Origin: Escherichia phage FV3 | Length of the DNA: 64,000 nucleotides | Direction: 5' to 3' (one strand) | Sequence record: NC_019517.1 | Shown here: positions 44,663-62,109 of the stretch, one piece after another | Layout of the letters: each line of letters starts with the position of its first letter | How positions within the stretch are numbered: position 1 is the first letter of the stretch | Made by a program: the position numbers and the translations under genes | The notes under the pieces: model-generated | Told to the model about the DNA's origin: nothing | What the model saw: the letters and a program-made list of their open reading frames with translations, nothing else | Databases searched by the model: none

Positions 44663-45574
44663 TTATTTTCCGTTAACTTTGTTGTAGTTTCCCTGCTCAG
44701 ATGGGACTATGGTAGAAGGTCTTCCATATTCCTGATAATACCAATCCGCAGCAGATTGGGTAACACCGTTTTCATCCGTCCACATCATAGATTTGTATGG
44801 CTGCCACTCTTCTGCAGCATTTGTGGATGCAGTGTCTGCAAATGCCCCTGTGTCCCTCTTGTTACCTACGTTACTGCCATTCTTACAATCGTTGACAGCA
44901 CCTTTTTGCTGGGTCTTGCCTACTTTCTTAGGGTTGCTGTATACAGTTGCATTAACAACCTTGTTCAAGTAGAATGTGCGGAACTCTGTAAGTTCTACAT
45001 CAAACACCATCGCAGCGCCTTCACCAACAGACTTGTTGGCAGAAAGACTGGTTATGATGTAGTTCTCAAGGAGTCTCTCCTCGGTAACCAAAGAAACCAA
45101 TTGGCGCTTATTAATGATCTCAGTCAAAGCCTCCAGTGCAGCGCCCGGTCGCATAGATGCTGCAGGGTTTTTAGAGTCAGTATTCCTGTCAATGTAGTTT
45201 TGCTCATAGATTATATGTGGTGATGTATTTACCCTACCAGTAAAAGAAAATACACCATCTTTAATTACAGCGTGGTCTGACAGGGTAGATTTATCTTCCA
45301 CCGCAAAATCAGTCTTATCAACAGAATGTTTGAAAGAGTAATTCTCAACCTGATCGAAGATAATGGCAAGATCGTTAGTAAAGTTTTTACCCTTCATCTC
45401 CGTATTGCGACCACCATAGTTAAGACCGCTGACAAACATAGTGTATTTTACATCGCTTTCAGTTTGCTGCTCTGCCTTTTCAGCCTTTGGAGATTTAACC
45501 TCTTGAGGCTTGTACAGGTCTTTTTCATCAACTATATTGCTTGGCATAACCTCTCCAGGACACTCCGATACCAT
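44663..45574 (-). CDS. Putative tail/baseplate protein (303 aa; start may be at internal Met 10)
   Basis: First gene downstream of tape measure. Confidence 0.4.
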   Translation of the reverse strand: MVSECPGEVMPSNIVDEKDLYKPQEVKSPKAEKAEQQTESDVKYTMFVSGLNYGGRNTEMKGKNFTNDLAIIFDQVENYSFKHSVDKTDFAVEDKSTLSDHAVIKDGVFSFTGRVNTSPHIIYEQNYIDRNTDSKNPAASMRPGAALEALTEIINKRQLVSLVTEERLLENYIITSLSANKSVGEGAAMVFDVELTEFRTFYLNKVVNATVYSNPKKVGKTQQKGAVNDCKNGSNVGNKRDTGAFADTASTNAAEEWQPYKSMMWTDENGVTQSAADWYYQEYGRPSTIVPSEQGNYNKVNGK

Positions 45575-61200: not shown

Positions 61201-61277
61201 TGGTCTCCACGGAGTGATTCGAACACTCGACCTCCTGATCCCAAATCAGGCGCTCTACCAAGCTGAGCTACGCGGAG
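61201..61277 (-). tRNA. tRNA-Pro (anticodon TGG)
   Basis: Manual cloverleaf: acceptor CTCCGCG/CGTGGAG, D-stem GCTC/GAGC, anticodon loop TTTGGGA, T-loop TTCGAAT, encoded CCA. Confidence 0.7.
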
Positions 61278-61287
61278 TATTTATAAT

Positions 61288-61362
61288 TTGGTGGCCCTGG
61301 GTGGAATTGAACCACCGTCTGGCGATTATGAGTCGCTTGCTTGAACCTTCCAGCTACAGGGC
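61288..61362 (-). tRNA. tRNA-Met (anticodon CAT)
   Basis: Acceptor GGCCCTG/CAGGGCC, anticodon loop CTCATAA, T-arm GGTGG-TTCAATT-CCACC, encoded CCA. Confidence 0.6.
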
Positions 61363-61363
61363 C

Positions 61364-61440
61364 ATGGTGCTGATAGCAGGACTCGAACCTGCAACCTATT
61401 GATTACAAATCAATTGCACTACCAATTGTGCTACATCAGC
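61364..61440 (-). tRNA. tRNA-Thr (anticodon TGT)
   Basis: Acceptor GCTGATG/TATCAGC, D-stem GCAC/GTGC, anticodon arm ATTGA-TTTGTAA-TCAAT, T-loop TTCGAGT, encoded CCA. Confidence 0.7.
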
Positions 61441-61443
61441 AAA

Positions 61444-61544
61444 AAGGTGCTAGGTGATGGAATCGAACCACCTATGTATTCAACGACTACCTCGTCTATT
61501 TTCAGGATTAAAAATCCTCGCCCTTGCCAAAGGGCTTACCTAGC
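61444..61544 (-). tRNA. Atypical tRNA-like gene (about 100 nt); anticodon loop reads TTT (Lys-like) with an about 30-nt variable-region insertion
   Basis: Perfect 7-bp acceptor pairing GCTAGGT/ACCTAGC about 100 nt apart, D-arm GCCC-TTTGGCAA-GGGC, anticodon arm AGGA-TTTTTAA-TCCT, T-arm GGTGG-TTCGATT-CCATC; CCA not fully encoded. Confidence 0.4.
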
Positions 61545-61642
61545 TCAGTATGTTGACCATGTTGCTAGTCGGCGATGACGACTGTAACATTTGATAATCC
61601 GGTTCTGCTTCCGGCTTTCGCTTAATTACAAGGTCAACAATA

Positions 61643-61733
61643 TGGCTGAGGGTAATGGAATCGAACCATCATCGAGTCATCCTCAACGGGACGGTTTTCA
61701 AGACCGCTTGAGCACCATTGCTCCCTACCCTCA
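61643..61733 (-). tRNA. tRNA-Ser (anticodon TGA), type II with long variable arm
   Basis: Acceptor TGAGGGT/ACCCTCA, anticodon region GCGGTCTTGAAAACCGT similar to E. coli tRNA-Ser(UGA), T-loop TTCGATT, encoded GCCA. Confidence 0.65.
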
Positions 61734-61847
61734 TTTATAAACAATACTGATAATGACACTGATTTTCGAGCAGTTAGTGACTAGTATAAACGACGATAAA
61801 TATCAATGCCATTATCTGTATGATTTATGCATTTAAAAATATAAATT

Positions 61848-61934
61848 TGGTGGGGAGTGGTGGAGTCGAACCACCCGAGTCGCAATGACAATAGATTTAC
61901 AGTCTACACCGCTACCTCTACGGGATAACTCCCC
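61848..61934 (-). tRNA. tRNA-Tyr (anticodon GTA), type II
   Basis: Acceptor GGGGAGT/ACTCCCC, anticodon arm AGACTGTAAATCT as in E. coli tRNA-Tyr, long variable arm, T-loop TTCGACT, encoded CCA. Confidence 0.7.
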
Positions 61935-61938
61935 AATT

Positions 61939-62013
61939 TGGCACCCCGTACTGGACTCGAACCAGTGTCAACGGCTTAGAAGGCCGCTGCTTTATCCACT
62001 AAGCTAACAGGGC
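61939..62013 (-). tRNA. tRNA-Arg (anticodon TCT)
   Basis: Acceptor GCCCTGT/ACGGGGT (with G-U pairs), D-stem GCTT/AAGC, anticodon arm GCGGC-CTTCTAA-GCCGT, T-arm ACTGG-TTCGAGT-CCAGT, encoded CCA. Confidence 0.65.
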
Positions 62014-62109
62014 ACTGGGTGGCTTTCTTTTACACCTTAGCCGCCAGAAAAGGTGGGAGACCATGTTTACAATATTACACTGTTAAGCAAAGTTTGTCAA
62101 GAAAATATT

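Follow-up and report, generated by a model that had tools for sequence, protein, structure and literature searches.

The tRNA array of Escherichia phage FV3 carries, next to six ordinary tRNA genes, a tRNA-like gene with a large insertion. We analysed this gene within a window of 64,000 nucleotides of the phage genome (sequence record NC_019517.1), where it occupies positions 61446–61544 of the minus strand. The pairing and covariation found among its relatives make us highly confident that the element is a genuine, selected and structured RNA gene. It appears to belong to a tRNA-like RNA family which was previously uncharacterised and which is common to a whole phage subfamily, the Vequintavirinae. 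Its function we infer entirely from sequence; a tRNA mimic rather than a routine decoder is the reading that we favour, with slightly less than even confidence.

Structure of the element

The initial annotation of the locus, made without database searches, had described a tRNA-like gene with a 7-bp acceptor stem, a T arm, a UUU anticodon arm and a long insertion. All of these are present on the minus strand, and the insertion is 31 nt long. With its encoded CC the whole gene measures 99 nt (61446–61544); it is detected by ARAGORN, by the Rfam tRNA model with 35.5 bits and by the family model R1 described below with 102.8 bits (61445–61544). All coordinates of the parts of the element likewise refer to the minus strand. 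The 5′ strand of the acceptor stem, GCUAGGU (61538–61544), pairs at seven of seven positions with the 3′ strand ACCUAGC (61449–61455). Two nucleotides, AA, lead from the acceptor strand to the D arm GCCC-UUUGGCAA-GGGC (61520–61535), which has G19 in its loop. A single nucleotide, G26, separates the D arm from a short anticodon-like hairpin, AGGA-UUUUUAA-UCCU (61504–61518), with the triplet UUU in a 7-nt loop. The stem of this hairpin has 4 bp instead of 5 bp, and with 15 nt the arm falls short of the usual 17.

Between the anticodon arm and the T arm lies the 31-nt stretch GAAAAUAG-ACGA-GGUAG-UCGU-UGAAUACAUA (61473–61503). It is made up of a 5′ junction strand, GAAAAUAG, which contains GAAAA (61496–61503), an inserted hairpin ACGA-GGUAG-UCGU, which we call hairpin 2 (61483–61495), and a 3′ junction strand, UGAAUACAUA, which contains AAUACAUA (61473–61482). 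The T arm GGUGG-UUCGAUU-CCAUC (61456–61472) follows, and the gene ends with the discriminator A73 (61448) and the encoded CC (61447–61446). A run of UUUUU lies 3′ of the CC, and the gene for tRNA-Thr starts at 61440. The variable region of 31 nt is beyond the class I range of 4–5 nt, and the variable regions of class II tRNAs are also far shorter. As an anatomical description, a tRNA with an insertion is therefore correct.

The Rfam tRNA model (RF00005) matches positions 61448–61544 above its gathering score of 29 (E = 0.00095 for the whole window), and this match needs a 26-nt insertion opened in the variable region. An ordinary 76-nt tRNA with other boundaries, which the initial annotation had named as the outcome that would speak against its view, was not found at the locus with this covariance model. 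When folded without constraints, the element adopts the same cloverleaf with the extra hairpin at −34.2 kcal/mol (z = −3.66), and none of 200 shuffled sequences folds as well. ARAGORN labels the gene (61446–61544) as “tRNA-??? (atcc)”. The alternative fold behind this label, with a stem AUUUU/AAAAU and the four-base anticodon AUCC, was discarded, as its pairing is lost in phage Av-05 and is absent in Seunavirus. A protein-coding reading was likewise rejected, the only open reading frames being short and spurious ones antisense to the tRNA genes.

A family of tRNA-like RNAs in phages

BLAST and motif scans yielded 27 distinct sequence variants of the element. Every genus of the Vequintavirinae that was sampled has the element, and it also occurs in a single N4-like podovirus and in phage contigs from metagenomes. 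The sources are Vequintavirus (the rV5 lineage, to which the window copy belongs), Avunavirus Av-05, Seunavirus (PVP-SE1, GAP31 and NINP13076), Mydovirus KB57, Henunavirus (the Erwinia phages pEp_SNUABM_01 and Hena1), the phages 4MG and Ro1, the N4-like Schitoviridae phage UTK0002 of Salmonella (Ithacavirus), and contigs from IMG/VR and metagenomes. The covariance model R1, built from 24 members, gives 97–120 bits for members and at most 31 bits for every ordinary tRNA in the same loci, and it finds one copy of the element per phage tRNA array. For the window copy the gap to the best ordinary tRNA exceeds 65 bits. This copy shows all the features by which we define the family, namely the cloverleaf, the 4-bp anticodon stem, the insert of GAAAA, hairpin and AAUACAUA, the canonical T arm and the single copy per array.

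Standard tools largely overlook the family. At six other loci its members go unreported by the Rfam tRNA model at the gathering score, and outside the rV5 lineage they are called neither by ARAGORN nor by Rfam at that score. The diagnostic motif AATACATAGGYGGTTMGAYTCC had no match in 185,579 bacterial and archaeal genomes (one genome per species). We therefore consider the family to be phage-borne and not copied from a host tRNA gene. Descent from a phage tRNA-Gly was considered and dropped: the PVP-SE1 copy is 76% identical to the tRNA-Gly of PVP-SE1 against a background of about 68%, which is a weak signal; the acceptor stems differ, and the other variants do not share the signal. Between the Erwinia phages and the N4-like phage the copies are 90% identical, whereas the tRNA-Thr genes of these phages are only 72% identical. 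This points to a horizontal transfer of the element into the N4-like phage, followed by its retention.

Selection on a tRNA fold

Covariation was assessed in an alignment of 24 sequences for 20 pairs, that is, the acceptor, D, anticodon and T stems and the tertiary pair 19:56. All 480 base-pair cells hold a standard pair, compared with 85% after shuffling of columns and 33–47% with slid partners. Double, that is, compensatory changes occur in 11 of the 20 pairs. The acceptor stem is fully paired in the 24 members, with double changes in five of its seven pairs, and three of the four pairs of the D stem covary, as does the T arm. The anticodon stem covaries as well: its first pair is A-U, G-C or G-U and its fourth A-U, U-A or C-G. 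The elbow pair 19:56, also among the 11, is G:C in 17 members and U:A in seven, and no member has a mixed combination. The change of G19 in the D loop to U (UUUGGCAA to UUUGUCAA) is found only together with the change of C56 in the T loop to A (UUCGAUU to UUAGAUU). The switch may go back to a single evolutionary event, and the elbow contact of an L-shaped tRNA is preserved by it.

The family is conserved as well as the neighbouring true tRNAs. Across eight lineages the mean identity of the element is 75% (82% without hairpin 2), compared with 73% for tRNA-Thr and 72% for tRNA-Arg of the same phages.

It could be argued that the element is a dead tRNA gene which was hit by an insertion and is now drifting. 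Several GenBank records carry it as tRNA-Pseudo or tRNA-OTHER, the same arrays contain other degenerate-looking tRNA genes, and one phage, V18, has lost the element. In V18 (locus L054, 850–950) a natural deletion has fused tRNA-Tyr, of which the 5′ two-thirds are left, to the 3′-terminal 50 nt of the element. Lost with it are tRNA-Ser, the lambda-like spacer described below and the larger part of the element, and what remains is a chimeric “tRNA” that does not pair. Against a dead gene stand the perfect pairing of 24 members, the 11 covarying pairs with the tertiary pair among them, a conservation equal to that of true tRNAs, and the transfer to and retention in the N4-like phage. Pairing, covariation and conservation thus exclude a drifting pseudogene in our view, and we regard a dead gene as highly improbable. 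The suggestion in the initial annotation of a pseudo-tRNA, understood as a decaying gene, is contradicted by the conservation and the compensatory changes across genera.

The conserved junction and the exchangeable hairpin

Apart from the T arm, the nearly invariant positions of the alignment are U7, A8, the D-loop frame UU..AA, G26, the G that follows the anticodon stem and, in the two purine-rich junction strands, GAAAA and AAUACAUA; the latter is unchanged in 27 of 27 variants. Hairpin 2 evolves differently. It is always paired, with ACGA/UCGU in the rV5 lineage and the compensatory ACGG/CCGU in Av-05, and in the other lineages its site is taken by unrelated, longer stems of 5–8 bp. The variable region has 31 nt in rV5 and Av-05 and 38–40 nt in all other lineages. 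One type of hairpin 2 (type b; loci L018, L019, L025, L028 and L048), which is absent from the window copy, keeps the loop N-GAA-CUAAC-AGUA-C on different backbones. Its AGUA/GAA signature presumably resembles a loop E or bulged-G (sarcin-ricin-like) module.

Partners for these conserved parts were looked for within the RNA and in the window. Folds of the variants gave no consistent canonical pairing between the two junction strands across lineages. In the 22 variants examined, pairing of the anticodon-like loop with hairpin 2 never exceeded that of shuffled sequences (p = 0.13 to 1.0). A kissing interaction, UCCA/UGGA in GAP31 and GCCA/UGGC in 4MG, had looked plausible and was rejected by these controls. 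The complement of the invariant strand, CCTATGTATT, has four matches in the window, where 3.85 are expected, and the sole exact match is the element itself.

These data bear on a reading in which the tRNA body would be a scaffold for processing and stability, and the inserted module of junction and hairpin would bind a protein or a small ligand unrelated to tRNA biology. The most conserved nucleotides are indeed the junction strands GAAAA and AAUACAUA and not the anticodon loop, the insert length is held at 38–40 nt (31 nt in rV5 and Av-05) despite the replacement of hairpin 2, and the type b loop is kept in unrelated backbones. However, the anticodon-like loop is conserved within clades and tRNA-like features are kept; the joint change of discriminator and loop in rV5 is hard to explain for a mere scaffold. 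Moreover, no partner was identified, and matches complementary to the motif are no more frequent in the window than chance predicts. We consider this reading unlikely, though not negligible.

The anticodon-like loop and the 3′ end

The 4-bp anticodon stem is found in 27 of 27 variants, and the arms have 15–16 nt. The loop itself differs between lineages: it reads UUUUUAA in rV5, UUUAUAA in Av-05, YAUCAAA in the Erwinia phages, the N4-like phage and several metagenome lineages, and CCNKCMAG, with 8 nt, in Seunavirus, Mydovirus, 4MG and Ro1. U33 is restricted to rV5 and Av-05, and the other lineages have A33. The 3′ ends vary too, with A73-CC in rV5, U73 (C73 in one variant) followed by ACA in Av-05, and U73-CCA in all other lineages. 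The window copy combines UUU with A73 and thus has both lysine identity marks, a combination confined to the rV5 lineage. The anticodon had been called Lys-like. This is apt for the rV5 lineage only. The relatives have loops of 7 or 8 nt with UAU, UCA, UCC or GCC, so that the family as a whole cannot be classed with the lysine tRNAs.

For the rV5 lineage the main rival to our reading is a working, structurally armoured tRNA-Lys(UUU), which would be charged by LysRS, the lysyl-tRNA synthetase, would read AAA and would replace destroyed host tRNA-Lys. Anticodon nucleases would cleave it poorly on account of its foreign anticodon stem and bulky variable arm. The 7-nt loop U32-U33-UUU-A37-A38 is of the canonical form, and with A73 the lysine identity set is complete. 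The curated BASEL records annotate the gene as tRNA-Lys (AAA), and rV5 has no other tRNA-Lys gene according to its genome annotation (PMC3606486). A precedent exists in phage T5's tRNA-Lys, which escapes PARIS through changes in the anticodon stem (PMC11464382), and ribosomes tolerate large variable arms, at least in the class II and aptamer-tagged tRNAs described (PMC7590224). Several observations are difficult to reconcile with such a tRNA. The anticodon stem is 1 bp short in every member, which should displace the anticodon relative to the elbow. Av-05, with a copy that is 90% identical, has UAU with U73 or C73, and decoding leaves the invariant junction strands unexplained. The sister lineages have A33 and 8-nt loops (6 nt if a C-G pair closes), and their copies coexist with normal tRNA-Lys and tRNA-Gly genes; decoding is therefore not the common function of the family. 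We rate an armoured tRNA-Lys in the rV5 lineage as a serious possibility, yet as less than probable.

The other loops could suggest a recoding tRNA, either an opal suppressor in the lineages with UCA or a frameshift-promoting tRNA in those with 8-nt loops, from which the rV5 copy would derive. Some GenBank records label relatives as “tRNA-TERM, suppressor”. The loop YAUCAAA differs only at position 33 from the tRNA-Sec loop, CUUCAAA, and anticodon loops of eight nucleotides typify the classical +1 frameshift suppressors, for example sufD. On the other hand, the near-universal U33 is replaced by A33, and the stem is limited to 4 bp. Scores with the tRNA-Sec model stay under the threshold of this model, and the acceptor/T stack is 7/5 and not 8/5. 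The pair C2-G71, an antideterminant for SerRS, the seryl-tRNA synthetase, is nearly invariant, and the window copy has neither UCA nor an 8-nt loop. A recoding tRNA thus appears very doubtful.

Genomic setting, existing annotation and neighbouring RNAs

The array (61201–62013, minus strand) is delimited by ARAGORN and by the annotations of the phages rV5 and MaxTheCat. ARAGORN calls seven minus-strand genes here, the element among them; the other six are ordinary tRNAs for Pro, Met, Thr, Ser, Tyr and Arg, as the initial annotation had stated. In the direction of transcription the order is Arg(UCU), Tyr, Ser(UGA), a 98-nt spacer, the element, Thr, Met/Ile2(CAU) and Pro, and the element is co-oriented with the real tRNAs that flank it at normal spacing. 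Upstream of tRNA-Arg and the array a sigma-70-like promoter, TTGACA-17-TAATAT (62072–62100, minus strand), is predicted from its match to the consensus; it corresponds to the P(tRNA) feature annotated in phage rV5. The tRNA region is 98–99.5% identical to those of rV5-like Vequintavirus coliphages, for example APECc02, rV5 and the BASEL phage MaxTheCat. About 19 GenBank records named “Campylobacter phage” (MG065635, MG065653 and others) have a tRNA region 99% identical to that of this rV5-like phage of E. coli, and are probably mislabelled or contaminant assemblies.

The paper on the rV5 genome lists six tRNAs and omits the element (PMC3606486). In GenBank the labels of the element and its relatives vary between tRNA-OTHER, tRNA-Pseudo, tRNA-Lys, tRNA-TERM and “tRNA-???(atcc)”, and full-text literature searches found no description of the element as a family. 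A divergent label is also seen for the gene with the anticodon CAU (61289–61363): it is a tRNA-Met according to ARAGORN and the rV5 paper, and a tRNA-Ile for codon AUA, that is, a lysidine-dependent tRNA-Ile2, in the curated BASEL record. Rfam gives sub-threshold Plastid-ycf2 matches on the plus strand at 61291–61363 and 61367–61440 (41.3 and 26.9 bits), antisense to true tRNA genes, which is an artefact of tRNA-like content in the Rfam model.

The 98-nt spacer between the element and tRNA-Ser (61545–61642, minus strand) has a cloverleaf-like fold of its own, in which an 8-bp stem, UGUUGACC/GGUCAACA, encloses three hairpins (z = −2.5). Phage lambda has a sequence 83% identical to its core in an unannotated part of the late leader (around 44866–44952, between orf-64 and S), and an intergenic stretch in the Salmonella siphophage ST1UNAM is 90% identical. 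The spacer and tRNA-Ser(UGA) together are colinear with phage D6, which is P1-like. In one of the hairpins the stem has changed in a compensatory way (AGUCG..CGACU versus AGGCG..CGCC). Rfam has no match for the spacer, which may be an undescribed conserved RNA or DNA motif of phages.

Further non-canonical tRNA-like genes were seen in Vequintavirinae arrays (L021, 3804–3873; L020, 4027–4096 and 2351–2425; L016, 192–261; L026, 5994–6079). Among them are a conserved 70-nt gene with a 4-nt “anticodon” loop, an Ile(GAU)-like gene with a 6-nt loop and one with an 8-nt loop. In Av-05 and NINP13076 sequences resembling tRNA halves, about 100 nt apart, are located just 3′ of the element (L003, around 1610–1790 and 1799–1883; L004, around 1612–1790). 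Av-05 contains, in addition, a gene resembling Arg(UCU) whose variable region is long and which lacks a proper D arm. Neither these half-like sequences nor the Arg(UCU)-like gene is called by any tool that we used.

A possible mechanism

We suggest that the element acts in the following steps. It would be transcribed together with the tRNAs of the array. RNase P and the enzymes which trim 3′ ends could then excise it, the CCA would be kept or added, and the RNA would fold into an L shape. That it is made and processed like a tRNA we infer from what RNase P and the CCA-adding enzyme are known to require, together with the element's place in a tRNA array, its elbow and its intact acceptor end. 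The mature RNA would engage a protein that recognises the shape of tRNA; candidates are synthetases, nucleases or toxins directed at tRNA, and proteins of the phage. The specific contact surface for this partner would be the invariant junction. Most plausibly, the element of the rV5 lineage would imitate tRNA-Lys(UUU) as a bait or as a cleavage-resistant stand-in. Among the interpretations offered in the initial annotation, a tRNA-derived regulatory RNA would come closest, in the wider sense of a tRNA-derived functional RNA.

We favour a mimic over routine decoding as the common job of the family because the anticodon stem is short, because A33 and loops of other than 7 nt occur, and because normal tRNA-Lys and tRNA-Gly genes coexist with the element. 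In addition, we know of no tRNA function that would explain the invariant junction strands, which look like a recognition surface.

Is there a target to be imitated? Host tRNA-Lys(UUU) is attacked by PrrC, and phage T4 mends cut tRNA-Lys with a repair kit. The rV5-like phages have genes of this kind about 3.5 kb from the array (MaxTheCat, locus L057, 28904–30912), which encode an Rnl1-like RNA ligase, a polynucleotide kinase and a phosphoesterase; homologues are located just past the end of the window and none within it. PARIS also cuts the tRNA-Lys of E. coli, in the anticodon stem between positions 40 and 41, and the tRNA-Lys of T5 with its altered anticodon stem neutralises PARIS and rescues infection (PMC11464382). 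An anticodon UUU (or CUU) together with A73 makes up the lysine identity set of E. coli (PMC9976931), and the window copy has UUU and A73. A role of the rV5 copy in a conflict over tRNA-Lys is therefore plausible.

Some points weigh against a mimic of this kind. Homologues of the ligase, the kinase and the phosphoesterase are absent from the N4-like carrier phage, and the ligase family is present in 757 phage records across many genera, well beyond the carriers of the element. The link to tRNA repair is therefore circumstantial, and a dependence of the element on phage RNA repair genes, which we had considered, was dropped. The 7-nt loops retain the signature of an anticodon loop (a pyrimidine at position 32, A37 and A38); in rV5 the loop with its U33 is fully canonical, so that decoding is possible in this lineage. 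Engineered tRNAs with large inserts in the variable arm still translate, at least those described in PMC7590224. A decoy would also face competition from the abundant host tRNA. Finally, the deletion in V18 shows that the element is dispensable, at least under laboratory propagation.

A bolder version of the mimic would see the whole family as a retargetable RNA decoy on a tRNA chassis, with loop and discriminator rewritten for each host and body and junction kept. It would be Lys-like in the rV5 phages of E. coli, Gly-like, with UCC or GCC and U73, in phages of Salmonella, Klebsiella and Cronobacter, and would carry UCA elsewhere; in each host it could bait, jam or titrate a tRNA-targeting immune nuclease or toxin. 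We put this forward as a speculation which is more likely wrong than right by some distance. If true, phages would have an anti-defence made of RNA, and for systems that cleave tRNA no such mechanism has been described so far.

The tRNA clusters of phages are now viewed as a means to counter host enzymes that cut tRNAs, and the focus has so far been on ordinary tRNAs with point changes. We find that a much-studied group of coliphages, together with relatives that infect Salmonella, Klebsiella, Cronobacter and Erwinia, keeps a tRNA-shaped RNA which standard finders miss or mislabel. Should it be a decoy or an armoured substitute, it would be a new tool in the arms race of phage and host, and would show that tRNA scaffolds which bear an additional RNA module occur in nature. 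A tractable model for the role of stable RNAs other than tRNAs in phage tRNA clusters is available in BASEL phages grown on E. coli K-12. The annotation of the element as Lys, pseudo, OTHER or suppressor by turns should end.

Comparison with known systems

Phage-encoded tRNAs with a counter-defence role resemble the rV5 copy in setting. The tRNA-Lys of T5, directed against PARIS, and its tRNA-Tyr, directed against the retron PtuAB, are likewise encoded in an array and have altered anticodon stem-loops. They are, however, ordinary 76-nt decoders with point changes, whereas in the element the anticodon stem is truncated and a large insert is conserved. The species 1 and 2 RNAs of T4 (rnaC and rnaD) are also small stable RNAs from the tRNA cluster of a coliphage, and rnaC has a T arm, but they measure 119–139 nt and have no cloverleaf with an anticodon-like arm. 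With model R1 no homology to them was found: rnaC scores 9.3 bits (E = 0.27), and rnaD is not matched at all.

Non-decoding mimics are known from other systems. The tRNA-like domain of the bacterial Y RNA YrlA and mascRNA are tRNA-shaped, are processed by tRNA enzymes, lack a conserved anticodon loop and act through protein binding. The ends of YrlA RNA form a Ro-binding stem and not an acceptor stem. That mascRNA is a tRNA mimic which does not decode has been described (PMC9976931). We found no sequence relationship to YrlA or mascRNA, the Rfam matches in the region being weak or on neighbouring true tRNAs. ARAGORN finds no tmRNA in the window, and the only Rfam matches to tmRNA are weak and lie elsewhere in the array.

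Class II tRNAs (Ser, Leu and bacterial Tyr) share with the element the 7/5 acceptor/T stack, the D arm, the T arm, the elbow and an extra stem-loop before the T arm. Their extra arm is joined by 1–2 nt per side, and their variable region is far below 31–40 nt. In the family, by contrast, the hairpin is flanked by two conserved junction strands of about 7–10 nt, and the anticodon stem has 4 bp. SerRS needs G73 and G2-C71, and C2-G71 is an antideterminant (PMC9976931); the family has C2-G71 in 23 of 24 members together with U73 or A73. The A73 required by LeuRS and TyrRS, the leucyl- and tyrosyl-tRNA synthetases, is absent from most members.

Members outside the rV5 lineage have tRNA-Sec (RF01852) as their best Rfam match, at 36–39 bits and thus below the gathering score of 47. 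Like tRNA-Sec, the family has a long extra arm; its D stem could have 6 bp with a loop of 4 nt, and many lineages, although not all, carry UCA. Unlike tRNA-Sec, the stack has 12 bp (7/5) and not 13, the discriminator is U73 or A73 and not G73, position 33 is A, and the window copy has UUU. Allo-tRNAs, which emerged from searches for tRNA-Sec in bacteria and phages, are non-canonical and have long variable arms and polymorphic anticodons; as described in that report, they are defined by acceptor/T stacks of 8/4 or 9/3 (PMC5389517), whereas all members of our family are 7/5.

Measured against a canonical tRNA, finally, the family departs from the 5-bp anticodon stem, from the uniform 7-nt loop with U33 and from the normal length of the variable region, and it retains, with covariation, the 7-bp acceptor stem, the D arm, the 5-bp T stem with its T-psi-C loop and the tertiary pair 19:56.

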